From: Bacillales bacterium UBA7278
GTDB lineage: Bacteria > Bacillota_I > Bacilli_A > RFN20 > CAG-826
Length of the DNA stretch: 64,000 bases
Direction: 5' to 3'
NCBI GenBank assembly: GCA_002472275.1
Contig: DKRQ01000019.1
Coordinates: 140,279 to 204,278, forward strand
Position 1 is the first letter of the stretch, and the number at the start of each line of letters is the position of its first letter. The position numbers and the translations under genes were made by a program. Positions 47,621 through 61,825 of the stretch are shown here, in pieces. The notes beneath the pieces are model-generated. The model saw only the letters and a program-made list of their open reading frames with translations. It was not told where the DNA came from and ran no database searches.

Positions 47621-49486
47621 TTAGTAGTCTAACCCTAGGGTTTCGTAGGTCCTTTCGAAGACTTTGATGGTGGATTCGGGGTCGGTTGAATAAGTGACCT
47701 CTTCGATCGTGAATTCGATGCGATTCGCTTCACGGAAGGTTAGCGGGCGTAGGCCTGGAGTAACCCCATCGCGATAAACTGTCCAGTCGGCGTAGGTTTG
47801 TGTATTCACGTGATCGGAGTAAATCCATTTGACCTCGACCTTGGCGTTGATGTTCCTGTTCACGCCAGGAATGGAGTGATGGAGGACAAAATGGGCGAGT
47901 TTTTGGCCGCTTTCCTTGTCAATTGAGGTGCTCGGTTCATCCCAAGAAATGTTCGGAATGAGGAAGGTGACACGGTTAGAATCCGCGGAACGGAGAATGT
48001 CGTTGCCATTGCCGAGGTTGACGGTCCTCACCGCGTATTGGCCCGCGGCGAATCCATTGAGAGTAGTCTCGGAAAGATCCGTCAAATCCGTCCTCTTTTG
48101 GTCGTTAATGTAAATCGTGAAAGAAGAAGGATCGGCATTATCGAACGTGAAACTCTTGCCATCAAAGGAGATGGTGGGAGCACCGAGTTTGGTGAGTGTT
48201 ACCTCGTTGGAGAACTCCGAGGAAATCTGATTGGTGTTGCCAACGGCCTTGGCGGTAACCTTGTGGGCACCGACCGCGGTGATACCGTTAAGATTGGCGT
48301 CCCATTCGGCTCCGTCTAGATAGTATTGGACCGAATTCTCGCTGCTGACGTTGCTCGCATGGAGGACTCCTTCGGAAATGGAGATGAGGGGGCTATCGAG
48401 TTTGGTCAAAACCAAAGGCGCGGACATCGCGGAATCGATTTCTCCCGCGTTTCTCGCCGCGTTTTTGGCGGTGATGCTGTAGCTGCCGACTTCGGTGATG
48501 GTCTTCACGTCGCCGGTGAACTCAACGCCATCGCGATACCATATGAGGTTTTCGCCATCCGCGGCGGTGAGCGCTCCATTGACCAAGGAAAGCTTGGGAG
48601 TGGGCATCCTGCGGATTTCGGCTTCCACGGGGGTGGCGTAATCGACTTCGGCGTTAGGCCCAATGGTGCGGATGGAAATGTTATAGACGCCAGGGTTAGT
48701 GGTGTCGAAGGCGATTTCGGGTGCGGTCGGGGAGAATGTGGAGCCGTTGATGCGGACATCATATCCAGAAGCATCGGTCGCGGCGGTCCATTTGAATTTG
48801 CCGTCGGTGGCGTCGTAATGGATGTCGGAGACGCCCGGCATCTTCCTTAGTTTCACCGCGGCGGATTCGTCGCTGGGGGAGTAGGCGGAGACGCCGTTGC
48901 TGCCCTTTTTGTCGCTTCCCGCGATGACGTAGGTCTCGAATTGGCTGAAGAAGGCGATCGAGTTGAAATCGTAGGTGGTGGTTTCGGTGTTGTAGTTGGT
49001 GATGGCCGCCTTGGTCTCGGGGTTGCGGAGATAAACGGTGTAGAAAGTGGCATTCTCGATGGGCTCCCAGTTCAAAACGCCGGTAGTGAAGTTGAATTTG
49101 GGGGCAGGGGTGAGGAGTTTTTTCGGGGAAGTGGTGACCTTGATGACCTTTTTGAAGTTCAAATAAGTCAAGGTGACCTCTTGGGTGCCGACGTAAAGCG
49201 GGTCATAACCCGTCACGGTGAACTTGTCGCCGGAAATCCATTGTCCGACGGAATCGAAGGCGTTGCCGACGTGAATTTTGGCGTTGGATAAATCCAAGGT
49301 GCCGCCATAGACGATGGGGTATTCTTCCTGGAGTTCTTTGACTTCGGTGACCACGTTGGTTCCCATGTTGATAAGAACGGGGGCGGTGGCGCCACCGGCG
49401 ACGCCCAAAGCAACGAGGGCGACGCTGCCGATCATGATGGATTGGGCCAGTTTGAGCCTGGCCACTGCGCGAAGCATGTGTGCCAT
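47621..49486 (-). CDS. N-terminally anchored surface protein with repeated beta-rich (Ig/FN3-like) modules
   Basis: Single N-terminal TM then 580-aa Thr/Ser/Asn-rich extracellular region. Confidence 0.5.
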   Translation of the reverse strand: MAHMLRAVARLKLAQSIMIGSVALVALGVAGGATAPVLINMGTNVVTEVKELQEEYPIVYGGTLDLSNAKIHVGNAFDSVGQWISGDKFTVTGYDPLYVGTQEVTLTYLNFKKVIKVTTSPKKLLTPAPKFNFTTGVLNWEPIENATFYTVYLRNPETKAAITNYNTETTTYDFNSIAFFSQFETYVIAGSDKKGSNGVSAYSPSDESAAVKLRKMPGVSDIHYDATDGKFKWTAATDASGYDVRINGSTFSPTAPEIAFDTTNPGVYNISIRTIGPNAEVDYATPVEAEIRRMPTPKLSLVNGALTAADGENLIWYRDGVEFTGDVKTITEVGSYSITAKNAARNAGEIDSAMSAPLVLTKLDSPLISISEGVLHASNVSSENSVQYYLDGAEWDANLNGITAVGAHKVTAKAVGNTNQISSEFSNEVTLTKLGAPTISFDGKSFTFDNADPSSFTIYINDQKRTDLTDLSETTLNGFAAGQYAVRTVNLGNGNDILRSADSNRVTFLIPNISWDEPSTSIDKESGQKLAHFVLHHSIPGVNRNINAKVEVKWIYSDHVNTQTYADWTVYRDGVTPGLRPLTFREANRIEFTIEEVTYSTDPESTIKVFERTYETLGLDY

Positions 49487-50319
49487 TATTTCTGACTCCT
49501 TTCCAGGCGTTTGCTAAAGCCCTTATAGGCTTTGTTGAGAACCTTGATGTGCTTGCGTTTCCTGCGGCTGAAGATGAGGGTCTTCAGGGGATAGACGCTC
49601 GTGACGAAATCCTCGTCGTTGAGGGTGTCGTTGATGAAGGCGACGTAGAACTTCAATTGTTCATCGGTCTTCGCGGTCTTCATGAGGAATTCGGCAAATT
49701 CATAGAAGGCCACTTCGTCATAGTTGCCGAACTTGTCGGAAAGGGATTGCTTGATCTTCGAAACGGAAAGCAAGGTGGTTAGGTCGCCGCCTTTTCCGGA
49801 AACGGAGAAATAGTTCTGATAAAGCTGGCCCCAGAAATGGGGATTGATGGCGTCGCATTCCTTGATGTCCGCCACGATTTGGGCAACGGTGTCGAAGTCG
49901 CCGAAAAGCGAACGGCAGAAGACGACGCGGAGGACGACCTCGGCCAAGCGGTTCCAGGTTTTGCCTTTGTTCGGATATGCGCCGAGTTCACCGGCAAGAC
50001 CTTGAATCTCGATCTTGATGGTGCTCGCGGATTGCTGATCGATGGATTGGATTTCGGCTTCCAGGTTGACCGGGAATGCCTTATTGAGTTCGTTGGCGGC
50101 CTCTAATAGATCTTGATCGGTGCCGGCATTTTTGACGGCCTTATGGATGGCTTTCCATTGGTCCTCACTAGGCAAAACGATGAGGGAACTTTCGTCCTCA
50201 CCTTGGCTTAGCACAATGCTTCCGCAGAACTTGCACTTATAGCGGCCGAGCGACTCTTTGACCAAGCCAGAGCTCTCGCCGCAATGGGGGCATTTGAGCG
50301 CCTGAAGTTCGATTGCCAT
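49486..50319 (-). CDS. zinc-ribbon domain protein, first gene of ABC/surface operon
   Basis: CPHCGESSG...CKFCGS N-terminal zinc ribbon; start at M55 of tracked ORF with GGAGGAAG RBS. Confidence 0.5.
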   Translation of the reverse strand: MAIELQALKCPHCGESSGLVKESLGRYKCKFCGSIVLSQGEDESSLIVLPSEDQWKAIHKAVKNAGTDQDLLEAANELNKAFPVNLEAEIQSIDQQSASTIKIEIQGLAGELGAYPNKGKTWNRLAEVVLRVVFCRSLFGDFDTVAQIVADIKECDAINPHFWGQLYQNYFSVSGKGGDLTTLLSVSKIKQSLSDKFGNYDEVAFYEFAEFLMKTAKTDEQLKFYVAFINDTLNDEDFVTSVYPLKTLIFSRRKRKHIKVLNKAYKGFSKRLERSQK

Positions 50320-50552
50320 GCTCTTCCTCCTTGGGTAGTGGCAGGGGGAGTGAGTGCTCAAAACACTATTTTCCCCCGTTCCTATGGAACATCTTATTAC
50401 ACGAGACTCTTTTATTCTATAAAAAAATACCCAGTTCCAATTCGAATGCGGAAACCATACATTTTTGCAAAGATTTTTCACATTTTTGAGGTGTGAGGAA
50501 TCTCACAAAAACCCTGCAAAAACCCCATATTTTTTGGAACTAAAACCCATAA

Positions 50553-50592
50553 TTAGCGCATTTTTAGCGCTGTCTTAGCGCTTCTTTAGCGG
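50553..50592 (+). promoter_or_regulatory. four direct TTAGCGC repeats at exact 11-bp phasing (candidate regulator-binding array)
   Basis: TTAGCGC at 50553, 50564, 50575, TTAGCGG at 50586; ~50 nt upstream of extended -10. Confidence 0.5.
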
Positions 50593-50640
50593 ATGCCCAA
50601 AGGGCAGGAAACGAAAAAATCTCGATATATGGAAACCGCA

Positions 50641-50649
50641 TGTTATAAT
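50641..50649 (+). promoter_or_regulatory. extended -10 promoter element (TGtTATAAT) of the ESCRT-like operon
   Basis: TG-n-TATAAT 48 nt upstream of first gene; weak -35; leader hairpin CGCCTT-t-AAGGCG at 50661-50673. Confidence 0.4.
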
Positions 50650-50696
50650 TGCCTAAACTTCGCCTTTAAGGCGCCATACGAAGGGGGACAAAAATC

Positions 50697-51644
50697 ATGT
50701 CACTATTCACTGATAAGGTCGACTTAGGGATGGCGGATTCCCGCGAACACTTGATTGAGAAGTATGTTTTCGACGTCAAGAAAGGAACCATCCAAATCCA
50801 CGTCAAACCCGGCTATGAAGCCATCATCAACGGCTACGACAAAATCGGGCCGAACCAAACCAACACCTACAACAAGAAGACGATCGGCACCACGCTCACT
50901 GCTTTCGTCTACCAGAAGGGCAGCATCGCCAAGCCGATCATCGTTCCCTTCTTCGCCGGTCAGCACACCATTTCGCTAGACGCCCATAAGACCGCCAAGG
51001 CCACGTTCGCCCTTGTCGGCACGGCCAAGATCGAGATCGATGACTACAAGGCGCTTGCTCGTTATTTCGACAGCACCGTGACCTATGCCGATGTCGAGAA
51101 AGAACTCCACGAGAACTTCAAGGACGCGTTCTCAATCCACATGACCGCAGCCGCGAAAACCTATATCTCTTCTTCCTCCACCGATGTCTCGATCCACTCG
51201 GATCTCAAAAACATCGCCAAGGCCGGTATCCAGGGCTCTTCCCTCCAGAACACCCTCATCGACATGGGCATGTCCCTTATGTCTTCCGGCATCAGCCTGA
51301 GGCTCAACCCGGTCGGCAACTCCGAGGAGATCATCGCCGCCATCAACGCCAAATTCAACGAAGCCGCCTTCGATGAATTCGACGAGGCCAAAGCCGATAA
51401 GCAGCGTCAAAGGGAAATCGAAGACAAGAAGTTGGACTACCAGCACGAAATCGACGTCATCAACGCTCAGAACACCGATACCCAGAACCGCAACAACAGC
51501 TATGCCTACTCGGGCAATGTCCCAAAGTATCCTCACGGCGCTCCCGCCGCCCCCGATACCGGCAAGAGGTTCTGCTCGCATTGCGGCAGGGAACTCGCCC
51601 CCCGCGACGAATATTGCCCGTCCTGTGGCACCAAGACCCGCTAA
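50697..51644 (+). CDS. SPFH/YdjI-like protein with C-terminal zinc ribbon
   Basis: Resembles PspA-operon YdjI-type proteins; C-terminal CSHCGRELAPRDEYCPSCG. Confidence 0.45.
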   Translation: MSLFTDKVDLGMADSREHLIEKYVFDVKKGTIQIHVKPGYEAIINGYDKIGPNQTNTYNKKTIGTTLTAFVYQKGSIAKPIIVPFFAGQHTISLDAHKTAKATFALVGTAKIEIDDYKALARYFDSTVTYADVEKELHENFKDAFSIHMTAAAKTYISSSSTDVSIHSDLKNIAKAGIQGSSLQNTLIDMGMSLMSSGISLRLNPVGNSEEIIAAINAKFNEAAFDEFDEAKADKQRQREIEDKKLDYQHEIDVINAQNTDTQNRNNSYAYSGNVPKYPHGAPAAPDTGKRFCSHCGRELAPRDEYCPSCGTKTR

Positions 51645-51669
51645 TCACCACCGATAAGGAGAATCAACA

Positions 51670-52635
51670 ATGGGACTTTTCAAAAGCAAAGAGCAGAAGG
51701 CCGCTGAGGCCGCTGCAAAGCAGAGGCAGCAGCAGCAAGCCGCCATCAACAAGGGTCTACAAGACAGCATGACCCCGAAAGACGATGTTACCCCCTACGC
51801 CAACGAAAAAAAGCGCAGGCAGGAAGAGCAAGCCGCGGCCCAGCACCAAGAAGCCAACCGCGACGAGATCGACGAAATCCTCAGGAACCTCTCCAGGGAA
51901 ATCTCGCTGAGCTTCCCCGACGCCGAAGACGACGCCCAGGAAATCCGCGACCTTTCCGTCAGGGTCAGGAGGATGAACCTTGGCAAGAACCAAGGTGCCA
52001 CCGACGCCATCATGACCTTCATCCGCGCCAAAGCGCAGGACATGATCGTCAAGGCCCACGCCGGCAACTACGCCGCCATCATCGGCTTCTTCGAAGAGCT
52101 TAGGAGCCTCATTAACGACGCGGAGAATCCACAAAAGGCCAAACTTATGGCCGATCCCGCCTACGTCAAGCGTCGTATCCGCGTCGCCGAGCTTTCCGCC
52201 CTCAAGGAAGACCTCCAAGGCCAGAAACAGGCTTTGTATCGCCAACGCGACAAACTCAAATCCAGGATGGAAGCCGGCCTCATTGACCAACGTGAAGCCG
52301 TCTCCAGGGTCGGCGACATCCGCGCTCAAGTCGAAGACTTGGAACGTTCCCTCCAGAACGCCCAGAGCGATTTGAGGGATGCCCAGACCGTCCTCACCGA
52401 GCAGGAGACCCAGATCCGCAACTCCGCGAAAGCCAAGGCCGAGGACATCAACGACTACACCGCGATCGCCGACCAGAAGGCCGACGCCGAGGCGCTTTCC
52501 TCCGAGAAAAACGACGTCATGTCGCAGATCCGTCAGAACAGCACCGATGTTTCGATGGATGACATGCATATGCATGCCAGCACCGGCAAGACCGAACTCA
52601 GCCAAGAACAGGTCGACAACGCCTTCGACTTCTAA
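51670..52635 (+). CDS. coiled-coil protein, possible PspA/ESCRT-III superfamily member, C-terminal AFDF tail
   Basis: Starts MGLF like PspA/Vipp1; long heptad-rich region; ends ...EQVDNAFDF. Confidence 0.45.
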   Translation: MGLFKSKEQKAAEAAAKQRQQQQAAINKGLQDSMTPKDDVTPYANEKKRRQEEQAAAQHQEANRDEIDEILRNLSREISLSFPDAEDDAQEIRDLSVRVRRMNLGKNQGATDAIMTFIRAKAQDMIVKAHAGNYAAIIGFFEELRSLINDAENPQKAKLMADPAYVKRRIRVAELSALKEDLQGQKQALYRQRDKLKSRMEAGLIDQREAVSRVGDIRAQVEDLERSLQNAQSDLRDAQTVLTEQETQIRNSAKAKAEDINDYTAIADQKADAEALSSEKNDVMSQIRQNSTDVSMDDMHMHASTGKTELSQEQVDNAFDF

Positions 52636-52649
52636 GGAGAGAGACGAAC

Positions 52650-53228
52650 ATGTTTGGTAAGAAACCCGCTCAGATGCCTAACCGCACCGACATCAACCTC
52701 AAGTTTTCGTCGAGCCTGCGCCAGTTGAAGCGCTCCATCGACCAGCTCGACCAAAAGATCGAGGCCGAAGTGGCCGCCGCGATTTCCTATAGGAAATCCG
52801 GCAACATCGACGAGGAACATCGTTCCCTCGCCAAGATCCAACGCTACCTCGCCCAGAAGATCCAAAAGGAACGTTTCTATGACAGCGTCGAAGGCGTCAA
52901 AGCCAAAATCGACGATATCCTCGACAAAGTCGAGGTTTCCCGCAACCTCTCCGAGACCTTGGGCAGCATCGGCCAACTCGTCGATTCCAAGGAACTCAAA
53001 TCCATCGTCGGCGAACTCGACACGTTCAACAAGAACTTCGCCAAGACCAACAACATGATGGACGCCTTCATGGGCTCGATGGACGCAACCGTCGGCGAAA
53101 TGAGCGTCGATCCTAGCCTCACCGCCTCCGTTCAGGCGATGGTCGGCGAAAGAATGAAGGGGTACGAGACTCGCATTGAGGAGCAGGCCGAGGCCGACCT
53201 CGATGAGAGCGCGTTCAATTTTCAATAA
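52650..53228 (+). CDS. ESCRT-III/Snf7-fold protein
   Basis: Aligns by eye to CHMP2: LDQKIEAEVAAAISYRKSGNIDEEHRSLAKIQRYLAQKIQK vs LETQEKKIIADIKKMAKQGQMDAVRIMAKDLVRTRRYVRK; ends ...DESAFNFQ. Confidence 0.65.
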   Translation: MFGKKPAQMPNRTDINLKFSSSLRQLKRSIDQLDQKIEAEVAAAISYRKSGNIDEEHRSLAKIQRYLAQKIQKERFYDSVEGVKAKIDDILDKVEVSRNLSETLGSIGQLVDSKELKSIVGELDTFNKNFAKTNNMMDAFMGSMDATVGEMSVDPSLTASVQAMVGERMKGYETRIEEQAEADLDESAFNFQ

Positions 53229-54505
53229 TGGAAAGCATCAACTCCGTCAAAAACCGTTTCTTAGCCGAGAAGAAAGAGGCGGAATACCGCCTCACAGTCA
53301 AGGACTACCAAGGGGCCATGCCTCATCTAGAGAAGGCCGCCGAACTCCTTGGCGAGGTTTATCGTCGCGACATTAACGTGCAAAGGCGCGAGCAGTATAA
53401 GCGTATCCGCGAAGAACTTCGCGACAAATACGACGAGTGCAAGCAGGAACTAGGCATGGCGCCTTCCTCCTCTTCCAAGCCCCGTCAGAGCACCCAGCGT
53501 CCCGCTGGCCCCCGTCCCGCCGCTGGCGGTGCCTCCCAAGCCAAGGGCGGCGCGCCCGCAAAAGGCGGCGACCAGAAGGGCAAAGGCAAGCAAGCCGAGG
53601 AAGACGATGGCATCAACTACGTCGTCAACGGCATCGACCTGAAGCAATTCCTCGCTTCCGAATCCCGTGAGAAAGATGTCATGTTCGACGACGTCATCGG
53701 CATGGAGAGGGAGAAGCGCACGGTCAAAGGCGAACTGTTCCTCTCAGAGGAAGAGAAAGCCTACAAAGCCCAAATCGGCCTCAAGAACAAGAACTTCATC
53801 CTCCTCTATGGTCTTCCCGGCACCGGTAAGACCTACTTCGCGATGGCCCTTTCCAATGAGCTCCGCGAATTCTCGGGCGAGGACATCCCGTTCTTCTCCG
53901 TCGTGTGCACGCATTTGAAATCGTCCCACGTCGGCCAAACCGAGAACAACATCATCGCCCTCTTCGAGTTCACGAAGCAGTTCGACCGTTGCGTCCTCTT
54001 CATGGACGAATTCGACGCGATCGGTCAATCCAGACAGAAGAACTCGGGCGACCCGACCGCCGTCACGGTTGTCAACACGTTGCTCACCCAACTCGGTGGC
54101 TTCGATTCCAACCCGAACCTCCTCTTCATCGCCGCGACCAACTGCCCCTATAACCTAGACGGTGCGTTGCTCTCCCGCGCCTCCCCCAAGATCGAGGTGC
54201 CTCTTCCCGGCGCCGAGGTCCTCTATGGGACTCTTAAGAGGAAGTTAGGGGATCTAGTCGCCCCCGACGTCGACCTCTCCGCGGTGGCCAACAGGCTTGC
54301 CAAAAGCAAGTTCTCCAACCGCGACGCCTCCAACCTGATCGACGAAATCAAGAGGAAGCTATTCGAAGCCCATAGGGCGGACGATATGATCGACAAAGTC
54401 GATACCTCGATGATCACCACCGCGCTGAAGGAGGTTAAGTCCTCCGTCAAGCGCGATGAGGAAATCGCCTTGGAGGAATTCAAGGCGCAATTTGCAGAAA
54501 ACTGA
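53228..54505 (+). CDS. AAA+ ATPase with N-terminal MIT-like domain (Vps4/CdvC-like) no. 1
   Basis: N-term three-helix pattern AEKKEAEYRLTVKDYQGAMPHLEKAAELL; low-complexity G/P/K linker; Walker A GLPGTGKT, Walker B LFMDEFDA, SRH region; start overlaps previous stop (TAATG). Confidence 0.75.
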   Translation: MESINSVKNRFLAEKKEAEYRLTVKDYQGAMPHLEKAAELLGEVYRRDINVQRREQYKRIREELRDKYDECKQELGMAPSSSSKPRQSTQRPAGPRPAAGGASQAKGGAPAKGGDQKGKGKQAEEDDGINYVVNGIDLKQFLASESREKDVMFDDVIGMEREKRTVKGELFLSEEEKAYKAQIGLKNKNFILLYGLPGTGKTYFAMALSNELREFSGEDIPFFSVVCTHLKSSHVGQTENNIIALFEFTKQFDRCVLFMDEFDAIGQSRQKNSGDPTAVTVVNTLLTQLGGFDSNPNLLFIAATNCPYNLDGALLSRASPKIEVPLPGAEVLYGTLKRKLGDLVAPDVDLSAVANRLAKSKFSNRDASNLIDEIKRKLFEAHRADDMIDKVDTSMITTALKEVKSSVKRDEEIALEEFKAQFAEN

Positions 54506-54526
54506 TATCAATAAGGAGATATAACC

Positions 54527-55114
54527 ATGAACGACATCAAACGCCGCATGAAGATGATGGAAGAGAAGCAGCAAGCCAAAGACATCATCAAGCAATTCGA
54601 TTCCGTCATCGTCAATTTGGACAATGGCATCGCCAAGTGCCGCGAGAAGGCCAAGGAAGCCTTGGTCAAGCGCAACGACATGGCCGGTTTCAAGATGTTC
54701 GGCCGTTCCATGAAGTACTACCAGAACATGAAGAACTCGATCGAGGCCATCAAGTGCCAGTTCGAGAACTACCTGATCCAAGTCGAGGTCGCCAACACCT
54801 TCGTCGGTTTGAAGGACGTCCTTGGCAAAACCGCCAAGATGATGGACTCCATGCCCTCTTTGCAGAAGAACAACCGCGACTTCATGAAGTTCAAGAAGTC
54901 CATCATGAAAGGCCAGCTCTCCATGGATTCCATCAACTCCATGATGAGCAACCTGGATCCCTCCGCGGATTCCGAACTCACCCCCGCCGAACTCGACAGC
55001 CTCAAGGACGAGATCCTCATGACCTCCGGCGCGAGCCAGACCACGATCGGCGCGACCGAAGGCGACAAGGCCTCCCAGTCCTCGGGCGACTTCTTCTCCG
55101 AACTCGACATCTAA
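54527..55114 (+). CDS. ESCRT-III/Snf7-fold protein no. 2
   Basis: IAKCREKAKEALVKRNDMAGFKMFGRSMKYYQNMKN ... TAKMMDSMPSLQKNNRDFMKFKKS parallels CHMP helices; acidic C-terminal tail ...GDFFSELDI. Confidence 0.6.
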   Translation: MNDIKRRMKMMEEKQQAKDIIKQFDSVIVNLDNGIAKCREKAKEALVKRNDMAGFKMFGRSMKYYQNMKNSIEAIKCQFENYLIQVEVANTFVGLKDVLGKTAKMMDSMPSLQKNNRDFMKFKKSIMKGQLSMDSINSMMSNLDPSADSELTPAELDSLKDEILMTSGASQTTIGATEGDKASQSSGDFFSELDI

Positions 55115-55123
55115 TCCAAAACC

Positions 55124-56308
55124 ATGGCCTTTGATTACCCGGGGAAAAATAGAGCCTACGAAGCGGCCCTTCAAAGAACGAAGGAATGCCTTTCTAACGG
55201 CGACGTCGAAAACGGCACCCTCTACCTAGACAAAGCGATTACCCTGTCCGCCGAGCTCGCCGCAAACGCGGCGATCCCGGAGTTTCAGGCGCGCTTCAAA
55301 AAGGAGAACGCCCAGCTCCTCAAAATCAAGGGCATGCTCGGCAAGGGCGAGAACCCCTTCCGGAAGAAAGCCACCGTTTCTAACGGAGACGGGGCAAAAG
55401 GAGGGGATGGCAAAGCCCAAAAGCCCGAGGAAGGGGAAAACGTCAGCGGCTTCTTCTCCACGGAGATCCCGACGACCACCCTCGCCGACGTCGCGGGCCT
55501 AGAGGAGGTCAAGGAGCAGATTCGCATCAACGTCTTGCTCCCTCTAAAGGACCCCGAGGTTTTCTATAACTATAAAAAGGACGCAGGTGCGCGAATCATC
55601 ATGTACGGCCCGCCGGGATGTGGCAAAAGCTTCGTCGCCGAAGCGATCGCCGGCGAGCTCAAGTGCCATTACGCGGTCATCACCTCCGACCAAATCCTCG
55701 ACAAGTATGTAGGCGTCGCCTCCAAAAGGATCAAGGCCGTCTTCGACGAAGCCGAGAAATACGACAACGTCCTTCTCTTCTTCGACGAAATCGACGCGCT
55801 TTGCGCTTCCCGCGACTCCGACGATTCCGCTCACACGAAGGACATTTTGACGACCTTCCTCACCTGCATGTCGGGTTTCAAACCCAAAGACAAATCCTTG
55901 AAGGTCATCATCGGCGCGACCAACAGGCCGTGGGCGATCGACTCCGCTTTGGTCCGTGGCCAGCGTTTGGACACCGCGATCTACGTCCGCCTGCCCGACC
56001 GCAAGGCCAGGGAATTCTTCGTGAAGAAGGAGTGGGAGAAGTTCGCCAACATCTACGAAGGCAGCGACCTCACGATGGATTACGCGATCGACGCCCTCGA
56101 TGGGTTCTCCGGCGCGGATATCAAGACGATCCTCGACCAAGCAAAGACCAAGACATTGACCCGTGTTTTGCAGGACAATTTGCCAAAAGGGCAATATTAC
56201 AAGGTGTCCAAGGCGGATTTCGACTCCGCTTTGGCGGCCCACCATAACCCCGTCACCGCCGAAATGCTACTTAGATACGAAGCCTTCGGGAAAGGAATGA
56301 CCGAATGA
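55124..56308 (+). CDS. AAA+ ATPase with N-terminal MIT-like domain no. 2
   Basis: N-term LSNGDVENGTLYLDKAITLSAELAANA; Walker A GPPGCGKS, Walker B LLFFDEIDA, SRH GATNRPWAIDSALVRGQRLD. Confidence 0.75.
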   Translation: MAFDYPGKNRAYEAALQRTKECLSNGDVENGTLYLDKAITLSAELAANAAIPEFQARFKKENAQLLKIKGMLGKGENPFRKKATVSNGDGAKGGDGKAQKPEEGENVSGFFSTEIPTTTLADVAGLEEVKEQIRINVLLPLKDPEVFYNYKKDAGARIIMYGPPGCGKSFVAEAIAGELKCHYAVITSDQILDKYVGVASKRIKAVFDEAEKYDNVLLFFDEIDALCASRDSDDSAHTKDILTTFLTCMSGFKPKDKSLKVIIGATNRPWAIDSALVRGQRLDTAIYVRLPDRKAREFFVKKEWEKFANIYEGSDLTMDYAIDALDGFSGADIKTILDQAKTKTLTRVLQDNLPKGQYYKVSKADFDSALAAHHNPVTAEMLLRYEAFGKGMTE

Positions 56309-57876
56309 TCAACAACGCAGACATCCTCCGCGAAGCCAAAGCCGCGATCGTCCGTGGCGATTACCGCACCGCGACCAAGCACATCGAAAAACTGATGACC
56401 CTTCTCAAGTTCGACTTTGAGAACGGCATCGACCGTGAGAAGAATGGCAGGGCCTTCAACGCCCTGGCCAAAGTCAGGAGGGAACTGATTGCCGGAAGTC
56501 TCAGCGAGTCTTCCTATGCCCTTTTGAAGATCCCTTCCCCGAAGCCGAAATACGAGGCCCCCTCCGCGCCGAAGCCCGCGGCCCCCAAAGAGGATCCCTT
56601 CGCCGGCTATAATCCCGACGCGAAGCCGATCGGCGGAAAACCTGCTCCCGCGCCAAAACCAGAACCCAAGCCGGAGCCCAAGGACGAAGAACCCGAAAAG
56701 CTCTCCCCCGAGGACGCCGCGCTTGCAGCCAAACCCGAAACCCAGTTCCACTGGGATGAGATCCCGACCGTCACCTTTGAGGACATCGCGGGCCTAGACG
56801 AATGCAAAGCCCTCGTCGAAAGGAAGGTTTTGCTTCCCTTGCTCCACCCCGAGATGCTAGAAGGCTACGTCGCCGGCGGCGGCGGAGGCGTTTGCCTCTA
56901 TGGCCCTCCGGGCACCGGCAAAACCATGATCTCCGCGGCCATCGCCAACAGGATCAACGCTAAATTCTGCTCCATCACCCCCTCCGATTTGCTTCAGCAG
57001 GGGTTAGGCAACACCGAGAAGGCCGTCAAAGCCCTCTTTGCGGAAGCCCGTTCCTATCCCTGCGCGGTCATCTATTTCGACGAAATGGACTCAATCGCCC
57101 CGAAGAACACCAAATCGACCGCGGCCAGGCAACTTCGTTCCGAGTTCCTCGCCCAACTTCAAGGCGTTTCTAGCTATGGCAAGAAGAGCAAGAACATCCT
57201 CTTCCTCATCTGCGCGACCAACAAACCATGGGATATCGATTCCGCCTTCTTACGTCCGGGCCGTTTCGGCACGAAGATCTACGTCGGCTTGCCCGATGAC
57301 GCGGCGAGGCGTTACATCATCACCCACCGTTTGGACAAGATCAAATCCAAGCGCACCGTCGAGATCAGGCCCGACATCGACATCGACATGATCGTCGAGA
57401 AGACGAACGGCTTCAACTGCGCCGACGTCTCGAACTTCCTCAATTCCGTCGAGGAGGTATCCCTTGTCCGTGCGATGAAGACCGGCGAGAAATACATCGC
57501 CAACCACGACTTTGTCCTCGTTCTTAAGAAAGCCGTCTCCTCCGTCCAGGCCGACGACATCATCAAACTCGATGCCTGGCGTAAGGAAAACGATGCGCCG
57601 ATTAGCTTCGATGACGACGAACTTGCCGGCAAACCCAAGGAAGAACCGGCCCCGACCGAACCCGCGGCACCCGCTCCTGAGCCAGCGCCTGCCCCTGCAC
57701 CCGCTCCGGCATCCGAGCCCGCCCCCGAACCTGCACCAGCACCCGAACCGGCCCCGGCACCTGAGCCTGCTCCAAGTGGAGAACCCGCCGCCCCGACGGA
57801 GGGCGATTCCTCATCTTCCGCGTTCGACGATTTCCTCTCCGGAATCGACGATTCGCTACCAAAAGACGGCGAATAA
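56305..57876 (+). CDS. AAA+ ATPase with N-terminal MIT-like domain no. 3, Pro/Ala/Glu-rich C-terminal tail
   Basis: N-term REAKAAIVRGDYRTATKHIEKLMTLL; Walker A GPPGTGKT, Walker B IYFDEMDS, SRH CATNKPWDIDSAFLRPGRFG; tail PAPEPAPAPAPAPASEPAPEPAPAPEPAPAPEPAP; 4-nt overlap with previous gene. Confidence 0.75.
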   Translation: MINNADILREAKAAIVRGDYRTATKHIEKLMTLLKFDFENGIDREKNGRAFNALAKVRRELIAGSLSESSYALLKIPSPKPKYEAPSAPKPAAPKEDPFAGYNPDAKPIGGKPAPAPKPEPKPEPKDEEPEKLSPEDAALAAKPETQFHWDEIPTVTFEDIAGLDECKALVERKVLLPLLHPEMLEGYVAGGGGGVCLYGPPGTGKTMISAAIANRINAKFCSITPSDLLQQGLGNTEKAVKALFAEARSYPCAVIYFDEMDSIAPKNTKSTAARQLRSEFLAQLQGVSSYGKKSKNILFLICATNKPWDIDSAFLRPGRFGTKIYVGLPDDAARRYIITHRLDKIKSKRTVEIRPDIDIDMIVEKTNGFNCADVSNFLNSVEEVSLVRAMKTGEKYIANHDFVLVLKKAVSSVQADDIIKLDAWRKENDAPISFDDDELAGKPKEEPAPTEPAAPAPEPAPAPAPAPASEPAPEPAPAPEPAPAPEPAPSGEPAAPTEGDSSSSAFDDFLSGIDDSLPKDGE

Positions 57877-57941
57877 GCGGGAAATCGCCGCAAAACCATT
57901 AGATTTCCTAAATTGCGATACCCAAGAAAGGAGTAGCGATC

Positions 57942-58889
57942 ATGAAAGAAAAACCCGAAATCTGCCCCGTTTGCAAAGGAAGGCTCTTCCTCACCAATCG
58001 CGACGGGACCAAGACCTGCGCGAGCTGCGGTCATACCCTAGGCACCCCATCCGCGCATGGCGGACGTTCCGCTGCCGCCCCCGTCAGGCCCTCTCCCTCC
58101 AAGACGGAGAAGTGTCCTTCCTGTGGCTCCGTGGCCAACTACGTCAGTACCGACGCCGACGGCAAGGAGATCTACGCTTGCTCCTTCTGCGGCTCGAAGT
58201 TCACCCCTAAGCCGCGCGTCGAGGCCAAACCCAAAGAACCAGAACCCGAAAAACCCGCGGCCCCCCTCAAAGACGAGCTAGACGGCAGGGAAATCTTCGC
58301 CCTTGCCAAAGCCAATACGGTCGAGATCTTCTGCCGCAGTGGCTCCGGCGCCTCGGCGGGATCCGGCTTCTTCATCGCCGATAACTTCGTGATGACCAAC
58401 GCCCACGTCGTCTTCGATGACTTCGGCGGGGCAAACCCGACCCCGTCCTCCTACATCGCCGTTTGCTTCAAAGGAGGCAAGCAACATGGCGCGGAAATCC
58501 TCGCGGCCAACCTCGACGAGGACATGGCGATCCTAGCGACTGACCTCTCTTGCTCCGCCATCGCCGAAATCGCGAAGGAGATGCCCGAGACCGGCGAGAC
58601 CATCTACGCGGTCGGCAACTCTGCGGGACAAGGCATGTGCATCATGGAAGGACTCGTGGCCGACCAACTCCGCGAGATCGCCGACAACGACTACATGATG
58701 ATCTCCGCGAACATCGTCGGCGGCAACTCCGGCGGCCCGATCTTCAATAAGCACGGCAAAGTCGTCGGCATCGTCACCCTCGGTTCCAACGAGGCGGTCG
58801 CGATGAACTATGGCATCCCCGTTCCCCGCATCGAGAGATTCATCAAGTCGGTGGAACAAAAAGTCGGCAAGAAATTCGCCCGTAAGTAA
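57942..58889 (+). CDS. double zinc-ribbon protein fused to trypsin-like (S1) serine protease domain
   Basis: CPVCKG...CASCG and CPSCGS...CSFCGS; protease motifs TNAHVV, DMAIL, GNSGGP. Confidence 0.65.
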   Translation: MKEKPEICPVCKGRLFLTNRDGTKTCASCGHTLGTPSAHGGRSAAAPVRPSPSKTEKCPSCGSVANYVSTDADGKEIYACSFCGSKFTPKPRVEAKPKEPEPEKPAAPLKDELDGREIFALAKANTVEIFCRSGSGASAGSGFFIADNFVMTNAHVVFDDFGGANPTPSSYIAVCFKGGKQHGAEILAANLDEDMAILATDLSCSAIAEIAKEMPETGETIYAVGNSAGQGMCIMEGLVADQLREIADNDYMMISANIVGGNSGGPIFNKHGKVVGIVTLGSNEAVAMNYGIPVPRIERFIKSVEQKVGKKFARK

Positions 58890-58900
58890 ACAAGGAATGA

Positions 58901-58927
58901 ACCGGTAGGGGCTCCCTATCGGTTTTT
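58901..58927 (+). terminator. Rho-independent terminator after the protease gene
   Basis: 10-bp stem ACCGGTAGGG-GCT-CCCTATCGGT plus TTTT. Confidence 0.5.
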
Positions 58928-58963
58928 CTTAATGTTCGCGTGCAAACGCGATAAAGTAATTCC

Positions 58964-60400
58964 ATGCCGAAAACCAAAGTACCGCAGAACGTGAAGCCCG
59001 AAGGCTATTGGAGGGCCATCGGGGCTTTTTCCATCGATTTGGCCCTAACGATCGTGGCCATCGTCCTCCTCTATGTCTCGATTGGCAACACCCTTATTTA
59101 TAAGGCCGTCGACTATGCGGGCGACATCGCCAAGATGGACGCCTTCATGGAAGGGACCGCCCTCGTCAATATCAAGGCCCCCAAATCCTATGGCTATTTG
59201 GACTTCCAGGACAAGGAAGGGGAAGTGCCGGCCTATCAAAAGTACATCGATCGCGTTTGGAACTATTTCACCGTCTTATGCGCGGACCCCAATTCGGGAT
59301 ATGACATCAACCCGCCGATGACCTCCTTCGATAACGAACACGACTTCGTGCCCTTCACCGGCGAGAAGACCGTCGAAAACATCGGCAAATGGGTCTATGA
59401 CCATTACTTTACCAGCAATCTTTGGAAGGCCCCTGTGAAAGAGGGCACCCAGGATCCCGACTATTCGAAGGCCCCGATTCCCGCCGAAGACCCGACGGGA
59501 CGCGAGGCCAAACTGAAGACCGCGATGTATGACGTTTCCACGACCACCCCAAAAGGAACCTACGTCTTCACCGTGAGCCACATCTTGGCCCAGAACAAAT
59601 ACGCCGCTTTGGCCAAAACCGAAAGGCTCCATGGCTGGTTCGCCTGGATGCCTTGGTTCGCGGTGGCCCCCGTCATCTTCTTCTTCGTCATCCCCGTGGC
59701 GAGCCGTAACGGCAGGACCATCGGCAAAAGGATCGTCGGAACAGCGGTATTAGGAAGCGACGGCTATACCGCCAAGAAGCTCAACATCGTCCTTCACTAT
59801 TTCTTCCCGACCATCTATTGGTTCATTCTGATGTTGCCTTATCAAGGCATAACCTTTCCCCTCTTCGTCTTATTGCTCCTAGTGGAATACATGACTTTGG
59901 TCATGACCCACAACCATCAATCCATCCACGACAAGATCGCCCAGACGATCGTAGTCAACGCCAAGCAATCCACGTGGTTCGCGAGTAGGGAGGATGAAGA
60001 GGAATATCTCAAGAGCCACCCCAATTCCTACGTCGCAAAGCTTCGCAGGGACGAGGAATGGGAATCCAATCCCCGTTACGCGGCGACCACCGCGGCCATC
60101 GCCGCCCAGGACGCCATCGTCGACTCCACGACGATCGGCAGGGCCAGGAAGGAAGCCGAGGCCATCTCCTCCTTCGACGAATTCGAGCGCAAATCCGATG
60201 AGGATTACGCGAGAAGGGAATCCGAGGCAAAGGCTAACTCCGAGCTTCAGGAAGAGCCCGAAGAGGAACTATCCGAGCAGCAGAAGCAAGAACTCGCCGA
60301 CCTCGCCAAGATGGAAGGCCTAAGCGAAGAAGAAGGCTCCGCCGCCCTCGAGGAAGAAGAACCCGAGGGCGAGGAAGACGACTTCGCCGACAAGAAGTAA
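58964..60400 (+). CDS. RDD-family membrane protein with large extracytoplasmic insert and acidic C-terminal tail
   Basis: YWRAIGAFSIDLALTIV, GKRIVGTAVL, HDKIAQTIVV (RDD motifs); tail EEEPEGEEDDFADKK. Confidence 0.6.
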   Translation: MPKTKVPQNVKPEGYWRAIGAFSIDLALTIVAIVLLYVSIGNTLIYKAVDYAGDIAKMDAFMEGTALVNIKAPKSYGYLDFQDKEGEVPAYQKYIDRVWNYFTVLCADPNSGYDINPPMTSFDNEHDFVPFTGEKTVENIGKWVYDHYFTSNLWKAPVKEGTQDPDYSKAPIPAEDPTGREAKLKTAMYDVSTTTPKGTYVFTVSHILAQNKYAALAKTERLHGWFAWMPWFAVAPVIFFFVIPVASRNGRTIGKRIVGTAVLGSDGYTAKKLNIVLHYFFPTIYWFILMLPYQGITFPLFVLLLLVEYMTLVMTHNHQSIHDKIAQTIVVNAKQSTWFASREDEEEYLKSHPNSYVAKLRRDEEWESNPRYAATTAAIAAQDAIVDSTTIGRARKEAEAISSFDEFERKSDEDYARRESEAKANSELQEEPEEELSEQQKQELADLAKMEGLSEEEGSAALEEEEPEGEEDDFADKK

Positions 60401-60497: not shown

Positions 60498-61349
60498 ATG
60501 GAATTCGATTATTCAACCAGAAAAGATTTGAAGTTTCTTATAGAAGTAGGGGGGCGGACCGTAGAGGAGATTGCCTCCGAAACGGGTTTTTCGGTACGGA
60601 CGATCGAAAGCGTTGCCTTAGGGGAAACTAAAGCCTCGGATCAGGTAAATGAAAAAATCTATTCGCTCCTTTTCGACCAAGGGTACTCCTTGAATCGAGC
60701 GAAAGAGGAGACTTTGGCTGAGAAATATGGGAAAGCCCTCTTGTTCCATGGGTCCAAGAAAGGACTAAAGGAGATTGTCGCGGACGGCTCCCGAGCCAAT
60801 TGCGATTTTGGGACAGGCTTTTATTTGGGCGAAAGATTTGATTCCGCAGCAAGTTTTGTCTTCGCTAATGAAGGAAGCAGCGTCTATGCGTTTTCCTTTG
60901 ATCCGAAAGGGCTCAAAGGCGTTGAACTTGAATGCGATTTGAAATGGATGCTCCTCGTTTGCGCTTTTAGGGGAACGCTAGGCCAATTTGCGAATCACCC
61001 TAGGATTAAGCAAGCCATGGAAACCATTGCGGGGGCCGATTATATCAAAGCCCCGATTGCTGACAACAGGATGTTTTTCGTCATGGATGCCTATGCGAAA
61101 GGGGAGATGACAGACGTGGAGGCTATCCATTGCTTGTCTGCCTCGAGTCTAGGGAAGCAGACCGTCATCAAAACCAAGAAGGCGATTAAGCGCCTTGTTT
61201 TCCTCGAGCGTTTCTATCTATGCCAAGGTGAGAGGCAACACTTCGCCATGGAAGCCGAGGAAAGATCCAAACTGATAGAAACGAAACTCAAATACGCCAA
61301 GCGGGAATTCCGTGGAGAGGGTCAATTTATTGACGAATTGCTGTCATGA
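60498..61349 (+). CDS. HTH-DUF3990 fusion protein
   Basis: N-terminal HTH (RTVEEIASETGFSVRTIESVALGE) then LLFHGSKKGL...CDFGTGFYLGER DUF3990 signatures; homologous to 25231-25908 product. Confidence 0.6.
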   Translation: MEFDYSTRKDLKFLIEVGGRTVEEIASETGFSVRTIESVALGETKASDQVNEKIYSLLFDQGYSLNRAKEETLAEKYGKALLFHGSKKGLKEIVADGSRANCDFGTGFYLGERFDSAASFVFANEGSSVYAFSFDPKGLKGVELECDLKWMLLVCAFRGTLGQFANHPRIKQAMETIAGADYIKAPIADNRMFFVMDAYAKGEMTDVEAIHCLSASSLGKQTVIKTKKAIKRLVFLERFYLCQGERQHFAMEAEERSKLIETKLKYAKREFRGEGQFIDELLS

Positions 61350-61825
61350 GAGAGTTTGATATAGAAGGATTAAGGCAAGCCGAGTTTCAAGCGGAGATTT
61401 TCGAGGCTTCCGCCACCAAAACCGATTGTTCTTCGCTTATTTTCCTTCGTCGCTATGGCAAATCCAAATTGGCTTTGTCTTTCGACCGGGGCACGGCCGA
61501 CTATTCCTTGACGGTCGAAGATGCGTTGCGGGAAATCGAAGAAGAATTTGGCCATTCCTCCTATGGCAAAGACAAGTATCCCGCTTCGGTCCTCTATTGG
61601 CTTGGATATCAATACCGTTACATCGCCTATACAAGGCAATGCGAAACCCGTTTCCTTTTCCGCCTCTTTCCTCCGAAGAAGATGGCGTCGACCTATTTGG
61701 CGTTCCATACCCAAAGCCAGGAATGGGTGGTGGCATCATGGCTGGAGATTGTAGAAAAGGACGAAAAAATCTTCTCTCCGTTTGAAAGAGCCAAAGCTTA
61801 TTACAGGAAAGTTTACGGGCTTTAA
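61346..61825 (+). CDS. DUF3791-like partner protein
   Basis: Homologous to N-terminal domain of 24612-25250 product; 4-nt overlap with upstream gene. Confidence 0.5.
   Translation: MREFDIEGLRQAEFQAEIFEASATKTDCSSLIFLRRYGKSKLALSFDRGTADYSLTVEDALREIEEEFGHSSYGKDKYPASVLYWLGYQYRYIAYTRQCETRFLFRLFPPKKMASTYLAFHTQSQEWVVASWLEIVEKDEKIFSPFERAKAYYRKVYGL

Follow-up and report, generated by a model that had tools for sequence, protein, structure and literature searches.

A 64,000-nucleotide stretch of contig DKRQ01000019.1 from Bacillales bacterium UBA7278, referred to in the following as the window, contains a 377-bp spacer (50320–50696) between two divergent operons. On the side of the rightward (+) operon, the spacer carries an array of four direct heptamer repeats that recur exactly every 11 bp, as a preliminary description of this DNA had stated: TTAGCGC begins at 50553, 50564 and 50575, and TTAGCGG begins at 50586. 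The best explanation for the array, to which we attach about even confidence, is that it serves as a sequence-specific docking array for a regulator that binds head-to-tail, most likely a winged-helix response regulator, and that modulates a promoter capable of firing by itself. We infer that a protein binds, and likewise its family, whether it activates or represses, and which signal acts as the inducer; the family and the sign are less certain than the binding itself.

The array stands out from the surrounding DNA. Tandem Repeats Finder (TRF) called it at 50553–50591 (period 11, 3.5 copies, score 50). The heptamer TTAGCGC is found on either strand of the window only at the three array sites, and TTAGCG occurs nine times outside the array, where shuffled sequences give 23 ± 4.5 occurrences in total. 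An exact fourfold repeat of a 6-mer at any period from 8 to 13 is present once in the window and in 0/200 dinucleotide-preserving shuffles. The four copies share one 6-bp core, whereas no two of their spacers are alike (ATTT, TGTC, TTCT and ATGC). Constant cores with differing spacers are the pattern expected of selected binding sites and would not be expected of recent slippage.

The polymorphism of the region was assessed in eight same-species sequences (the window, L001–L006 and L012), and the divergence test rests on one sister species, L018, in which the protein encoded by gene 1, the first gene of the + operon, is 87% identical. Within the species, one of 44 array positions segregates and none of the 28 core promoter positions does; over the stretch that begins with the array and extends to the ATG, the count is 6 of 144. 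By comparison, 55 of 231 positions (24%) segregate in the left 233 bp of the spacer (50320–50552), and 55 of 303 (18%) at all fourfold degenerate sites (14% in gene 1 alone). The array polymorphism gives P = 0.0016 against the pooled fourfold rate and, by hand calculation, ≈0.01 against the gene-1 rate. In the comparison with L018, the array is 91% identical (40/44) and is the best-kept segment of the spacer, the other segments ranging from 55% to 79%; the fourfold sites are 72–73% identical (P = 0.002). Each of the nine array-bearing sequences has four copies, showing that the array is not a phase-variable tract. Heptamer 3 reads TTAGCGG in 6/7 of the other same-species sequences and is retained as TTAGCGC in L012. 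Since the seventh base of the repeat varies between strains and between species, the constrained core is TTAGCG. Taken together, the low polymorphism, the identity to L018, the fixed copy number and the shared cores with differing spacers argue for purifying selection on specific bases of the array.

By the same rates, the constrained block comprises the array and the promoter through to the ATG, with the remaining spacer evolving at a near-neutral rate. The preliminary description had the region serving both operons. The divergent start at 50319 holds, with an ATG behind an AGGAGG site (AGGAGGAA at 50331–24), but the constraint ends at the left edge of the array, and the array is therefore tied to the + promoter and not to the divergent one.

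The extended −10 of the + promoter, TGtTATAAT, is where the preliminary description had placed it and is a conserved promoter element: it is the only TGnTATAAT among the intergenic regions of the window, and in most orthologous loci a TGnTAnnnT lies equally far from the ATG. The −35, previously called poor, is present but mediocre, matching TTGACA at 4/6 positions with a 16-bp spacer, so that the label is not upheld. In a consensus scan, the whole promoter made 10/12 consensus matches and had the TG extension in addition. The A6 tract upstream of the −35 resembles a proximal UP-element subsite. Dependence on an activator, with which the preliminary description had found a weak −35 plus an extended −10 to agree, is not implied, because a promoter that has an extended −10, an A-tract and four of six −35 matches can function in the absence of one.

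In the arrangement that we propose, four DNA-binding domains would be lined up head-to-tail on one face of the helix, most likely as two dimers of an OmpR/PhoB-type winged-helix regulator. The bound protein would cover approximately −103 to −64 from the predicted start, with the dimer centers at ≈−94.5 and ≈−72.5. These would be class I positions, allowing contact with the C-terminal domain of the RNA polymerase alpha subunit; the class-I-like placement is judged by textbook CRP geometry. A predicted bend extending from just upstream (50460–50580) would help to bring the bound protein and the polymerase together, and the inverted repeat TGCCCAAAGGGCA possibly aids the same contact. The regulator would modulate, and most likely raise, transcription, with basal firing provided by the extended −10.

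Several observations weigh against this reading. The OmpR/PhoB-type assignment made in the preliminary description fits the 7 + 4 bp architecture and the 11-bp period, but the distance to the −35 is unlike that of PhoB or SARP boxes, and no regulator gene was found among the window ORFs tested. Between the array and the −35 lie 29 bp, whereas the boxes of PhoB, B. subtilis PhoP and the Streptomyces antibiotic regulatory proteins (SARPs) overlap the −35 region; a span of −103 to −64 from the predicted start thus does not match PhoB/SARP geometry, although it is compatible with OmpR-like far-upstream sites. When 20 open reading frames (ORFs) of the window were scanned against Pfam, neither a receiver nor a winged-helix domain was found, and the search for a two-component regulator that the preliminary description had suggested yielded neither a response regulator nor a kinase gene among the window ORFs tested. 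Scans with Pfam, NCBIfam and PADLOC detected no local regulator among the neighboring ORFs, and the remaining genes of the window are recognizable housekeeping genes. The two zinc-ribbon proteins that flank the spacer gave no match in sequence searches of the PDB; by AlphaFold and Foldseek they model as SPFH and alpha-helical repeat proteins and not as DNA binders, and neither model contains a helix-turn-helix.

Nor does a second array exist in the 64 kb or in ≈10 kb of additional sequence beyond both ends (including L033 and L034). At ≤2 mismatches, TTAGCGS-N4-TTAGCGS has one other match in the window, a chance match in a coding region. The proposed search for further TTAGCGC-N4 arrays in the window and its flanks was therefore negative, and no regulon can be demonstrated. 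The preliminary description had held that an array without other occurrences and without conservation in related genomes would speak against its proposal; other occurrences are indeed lacking, yet the array is conserved in the closest related genome. It is absent from the relatives in which the gene-1 protein is ≤75% identical (L019, L007, L008–L017 and L038–40) and must therefore be dispensable for expression of the operon. Furthermore, the selection tests are based on eight related sequences and one sister species, and in L018 the spacers are as well conserved as the cores, so that base-specific contacts and DNA shape are inseparable in that comparison. A literature search returned no paper describing a TTAGCG motif, and to our knowledge the TTAGCG(C/G) core matches no known motif.

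The array was found in two sister species only, that of the window and L018. In L019 (gene-1 protein 75% identical), an inverted repeat, GGAAACCA-N12-TGGTTTCC, occupies the aligned position. The spacer of L007 (74%) is rearranged; about as far from its ATG as the array is in the window, it has the hexamer as a perfect palindrome, CGCTAA|TTAGCG, and it also has a GTAGCGC near the −35. This palindrome may reflect the same protein reading the hexamer in the other orientation, or it may be due to chance. L020 and its strain variants L035 and L036 (gene-1 65%) have TTTTGCC, TTTGGCC, TTTGACC and TTTCTCG units with periods of 10, 11 and 10 bp at the aligned position, where L035 reads TTTGACC-TTAT-TTTGACC; in L020, T-runs (T4–6) are found at −134, −124, −112 and −102. 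From its sequence, this TTTG(A/G)CC-like four-unit array appears to have kept the architecture and changed the recognition sequence. The more distant L008–L017 and L038–40 have nothing comparable at the aligned position. By this distribution, the array is a lineage-specific addition to an older, conserved promoter, and its general importance is limited because it is restricted to two closely related species.

The array and its L020-type counterpart might together represent the operator of a fast-evolving, unrecognized regulator dedicated to the SPFH/ESCRT-III-like/Vps4-like operon, an idea that we consider very unlikely. Given that no classical regulator gene is nearby, such a dedicated regulator might be a non-canonical DNA binder. 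If it existed, it would make the array the first cis-regulatory handle on the deployment of a bacterial ESCRT-like machine.

Alternatively, the array could be purely structural, forming the promoter-proximal part of a curved upstream region with phased A/T tracts, in which the TTAGCG cores are incidental GC spacers. Such a region would need no dedicated regulator and would stimulate one or both promoters through contacts with the polymerase alpha subunit or through DNA wrapping. In a wedge model of curvature, which is crude, 50460–50580 falls in the top 1% of the window, with a peak at 50516 that only one other in the 64 kb exceeds; the array, on the downstream edge of this segment, lies at about the 98th percentile. 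In L018 and L020, similar curvature is predicted equally far from the ATG, and weaker curvature in L019 and L017. The array spacers are T-rich, and in L020 the T-runs replace TTAGCG at the aligned position, although TRF calls no repeat there. Phased A/T tracts with high predicted curvature thus characterize 50460–50580, and the array itself only moderately. However, the most curved part of the spacer (50443–50552) is also the least constrained, with 20–41% of positions segregating and 62–78% identity to L018; its A/T tracts are polymorphic at or above the fourfold rate, which does not point to selection on their phasing. The array, by contrast, is the most constrained, the reverse of the pattern that an element acting by shape only would be expected to show, and its invariant positions are the GC-rich cores and not the T-runs. 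Shape alone therefore fails to explain the data, and we consider a purely structural array unlikely. A protein other than an OmpR-type activator would account for the selection evidence equally well, since that evidence is silent on the sign of regulation and on the protein family. The array would then serve as operator for a protein outside the OmpR type, such as a repressor or a nucleoid-associated protein, which could silence or insulate both promoters instead of activating the + one. Candidates include a BldC-like or ribbon-helix-helix protein that oligomerizes head-to-tail, or a NarL/LiaR-type regulator with variable heptamer orientation. Direct repeats in variable number are bound by BldC-type proteins that multimerize head-to-tail (PMC5859096), LiaRS-type two-component systems often control the psp-like operons of Firmicutes (PMC11237479), the L007 palindrome would suit a protein that tolerates both orientations, and with its good extended −10, 4/6 −35 and A-tract the promoter does not obviously need an activator. 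On the other hand, the array is clear of the −35, the −10 and the predicted start, which makes simple steric repression unlikely, and the end of the constraint at the left array edge leaves no link to the divergent promoter. The window ORFs tested gave no candidate gene for such a binder, and the regions upstream of the other orthologues show no enrichment of TTAGCG (3 occurrences vs. ≈1.2 expected in 8 loci). We regard this explanation, too, as improbable.

A last possibility, and the most remote that we considered, is that the array is a functionless 11-bp minisatellite, generated by replication slippage and slowly decaying. It is confined to two close species, and perfect 11-bp repeats containing TTAGCG are easily found elsewhere: a scan of viral contigs yielded 12 unrelated examples (L021–L032) with 3–5 units. 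In those minisatellites, however, the whole units are identical, spacers included, unlike in the window, where the same cores with four differing spacers would require non-uniform decay. Polymorphism and divergence far below the fourfold rates and the lack of copy-number variation in the nine array-bearing sequences also speak against it. The viral minisatellites are unrelated to the array locus and show that phages and giant viruses commonly carry tandem repeats of 11-mers.

The features of the spacer and the flanking operons are listed in Table 1.

Table 1. Features of the divergent spacer and its flanking operons. Positions are those of the window unless another locus is named.
Feature	Position	Strand	Description
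Heptamer 1	50553–50559	+	TTAGCGC; center ≈−100 from the predicted start; unchanged in the eight same-species sequences and L018
Heptamer 2	50564–50570	+	TTAGCGC; TTAGCGG in L018; center ≈−89
Heptamer 3	50575–50581	+	TTAGCGC; center ≈−78; seventh base is the sole polymorphic array position within the species
Heptamer 4	50586–50592	+	TTAGCGG; TTAGCAC in L018; center ≈−67
Inverted repeat	50594–50606		TGCCC-AAA-GGGCA; adjoins heptamer 4, within the constrained block; identical in L018
A6 tract	50614–50619	+	Abuts the −35 upstream; not kept in L018
−35-like hexamer	50622–50627	+	TCGATA, by consensus scan; CTCGAT kept in L018 and L020
Extended −10	50641–50649	+	TGtTATAAT; predicted transcription start near 50656
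5′-leader hairpin	50661–50673	+	CGCCT-tta-AGGCG; begins ≈5 nt from the predicted 5′ end
Ribosome-binding site and start	50681–50699	+	AAGGGGGA at 50681–88; ATG at 50697 of the 315-aa SPFH + zinc-ribbon gene
A-tract/CCC box	50507–50526	+	AAAAACCC-TGC-AAAAACCCC; 11-bp direct repeat of A-tract + CCC; center of the predicted bend
Three T5 tracts	50462–50487	+	12 and 9 bp apart; within the segment predicted to be curved
Probable divergent −10	50414–50419	−	TAGAAT; ATTCTATAAAAA block kept across species; −35 poor and variable
Divergent leader hairpin	50378–50390	−	GTTCC-tat-GGAAC; leader of the divergent 277-aa gene
L007 palindrome	L007 1557–1570		CGCTAATTAGCG; ≈−126 to −113 from the ATG
Gene 1 of + operon			315 aa; AlphaFold model with SPFH/band-7 fold and C-terminal zinc ribbon, pLDDT 77
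Second + operon protein			321 aa; coiled-coil protein
Two + operon genes			Snf7-like; match to Pfam PF03357 (E ≈ 6e-5) that falls short of the gathering score
Three + operon genes			AAA+ ATPases, closest to CDC48 and CdvC/Vps4
One + operon gene			Zinc-ribbon + trypsin-like protease
Divergent operon			Zinc-ribbon + alpha-solenoid protein, Big_3 surface protein, lipoprotein, two large membrane proteins, ABC ATPase

The leader of the + operon does contain a hairpin, as previously described, but the proposed 6-bp stem with a 1-nt loop is impossible; the actual structure has a 5-bp stem and a 3-nt loop. Its folding energy alone is unremarkable (z = −0.28). A per-sequence hairpin search established that a leader hairpin is conserved: nearly all orthologues have a 4–6 bp GC-rich hairpin between the −10 and the Shine–Dalgarno sequence, 15–30 nt upstream of the ATG, with differing stems (CGCCT/AGGCG, GGCTG/CAGCC, GCCCA/TGGGC, GAGTCC/GGGCTC and GCGC/GCGC). 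RNAalifold, run on the unanchored leader alignment, gave no consensus. The orthologue hairpin is likely to act as a 5′-end stabilizer or a translational element. In the window, its bases can pair alternatively with the ribosome-binding site. No Rfam family matched the window at its gathering score, nor did any match 50250–50800 at E ≤ 1, and none of the small ORFs that run through the array is preceded by a plausible ribosome-binding site.

Between the array and the A6 tract, the inverted repeat TGCCC-AAA-GGGCA may be a second, separate operator; 1/25 positions of 50597–50621 are polymorphic within the species. It is not a terminator, because no T-run follows it. Palindromes resembling TGCCC...GGGCA are also found upstream in L017. 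The AAAAACCC-TGC-AAAAACCCC box is the most widely kept upstream element, being present in the window, L018, L020/L035 and L038–40 and partly in L019, L009 and L013, and in the form AAAAACCCTGCAAA(A/C)CCCC it is widely conserved across the orthologous loci. In a de novo 9-mer search of 10 orthologous upstream regions, the CCTGCAAAA/CCC box was the only motif returned, with a marginal 6/10 loci vs. 4–6 in shuffles.

On the divergent side, TAGAAT is, from its sequence, the probable −10. Among strains, 41% of the fourfold sites segregate in the divergent operon (49486–50319) vs. 14–16% in the SPFH operon (50697–52635); the spacer may coincide with a recombination boundary or with the margin of a surface-protein locus that evolves rapidly.

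Other candidate sites in the spacer were considered and rejected. A CRP/FNR-type palindrome, TGTGA-GGAATC-TCACA (50492–50507), lies where the spacer varies most; it is perfect in the window but disrupted in 7/7 of the other same-species sequences and in L018, and has probably arisen by chance. Similarly, a 17-nt inverted repeat (50446–62 and 50625–41) has its left arm in the hypervariable part. A promoter of the extracytoplasmic function sigma-W type, TGAAAC-N16-CGTA, checked for by eye near two GGAAAC words, does not fit in its spacing and −10, and the words are absent from L018. A sigma-54 reading of GGGGTTTTTGCA on the minus strand has the wrong GG–GC spacing, and TTTTAGCGCTGTCT, read as a catabolite-responsive element (cre) for CcpA, is without the TG and CA ends.

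The window is chromosomal, containing rplK, rplA, rplJ, rpoB, rpoC, rpsL, rpsG, fusA, tuf and nusG. The + operon (50697–60400), which also includes an RDD protein, looks like a bacterial ESCRT-III/Vps4-like membrane-remodeling cluster. By Foldseek, the model of the 315-aa protein matched prohibitin, stomatin, HflK/C and flotillin at E-values of 1e-7 to 1e-5. Partners of PspA that combine band-7 and a zinc ribbon have been described in Firmicutes, as have bacterial operons combining Snf7-clade and AAA+ proteins, and clusters of the ESCRT-III/Vps4-like kind are mentioned only briefly in comparative surveys (PMC11237479). The comparison with psp regulation made in the preliminary description is reasonable, gene 1 being of the Firmicute PspA-partner type (PMC11237479), but remains an analogy only, and stress induction of the operon is pure conjecture. 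In themselves, phased heptamers ahead of a promoter are a textbook arrangement; here they precede an operon of SPFH/band-7, Snf7-like and three Vps4/CdvC-like AAA+ genes from uncultured rumen Bacilli. If the array is an operator, it offers a way to study by experiment how this poorly understood operon is regulated.

Elsewhere in the window, a tandem repeat of period 30/18/6 at 57667–57774 encodes the Pro-Ala-Pro-Glu-rich, low-complexity C-terminal tail of the third AAA+ ATPase. Two DUF3990 genes are located at 24612–25908 (−) and 60498–61825 (+); one is paired with a gene encoding a C-terminal HTH_3 (XRE-type) domain and the other with a small gene of unassigned family. These pairs may be toxin–antitoxin-like or phage-related.

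Among known systems, the array was compared with the CIRCE operator of HrcA (controlling inverted repeat of chaperone expression), TTAGCACTC-N9-GAGTGCTAA, in which 9 bp separate the two 9-bp arms of an inverted repeat located over the promoter or start site. The CIRCE half-site TTAGCAC resembles TTAGCGC and is exactly the fourth copy in L018, and CIRCE is linked to Firmicute stress operons, as the array may be. The window nevertheless contains no match to TTAGCACTC-N9-GAGTGCTAA at ≤3 mismatches, and the array consists of direct repeats without an inverted partner, so that CIRCE was rejected. Centromeres (parC) made of 11-bp iterons are bound by ParR-type proteins. BldC sites are likewise tandem direct repeats of about one helical turn in variable number, on which a cooperative filament forms (PMC5859096). 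Unlike in the BldC and ParR systems, no small MerR-like, ribbon-helix-helix or partition gene adjoins the array. An iteron origin or partition centromere was rejected as well, the array having no adjacent rep or par gene and lying in a chromosomal setting near rpoBC, tuf and ribosomal protein genes.

The array also shares features with curved or UP-like upstream DNA of Firmicutes, namely A/T tracts phased at ≈10–12 bp between two promoters, high predicted curvature and an A6 at the −35, but differs from it in that the constraint is on the GC-rich TTAGCG cores. Like the SARP sites (afs box), it has direct repeats on one helix face, which in SARP sites are 11 or 22 bp apart, together with a weak −35 (PMC10936776). 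In SARP sites, however, the 3′ repeat is 8 bp from the −10, compared with 51 bp here, and SARPs are actinobacterial, whereas the host of the array is a Bacilli/Erysipelotrichaceae-like metagenome-assembled genome. Both PhoP/PhoB-type and SARP operators are built from 7-bp cores separated by 4 bp and thus repeated every 11 bp (PMC2275107, PMC4832192, PMC10936776), and arrays of winged-helix regulators of up to six units are bound cooperatively (PMC2275107, PMC4832192). The array is similar in build to PHO-box units, such as the 11-nt direct repeat units (DRus) of Streptomyces PhoP and the 7-bp motifs of M. tuberculosis PhoP, with which it shares direct repeats, a 7-bp core and a 4-bp T-rich spacer; activating PHO boxes, however, overlap the −35 or adjoin it. 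Its even number of units, four, would fit two dimers, as in the operators of the OmpR/PhoB family.

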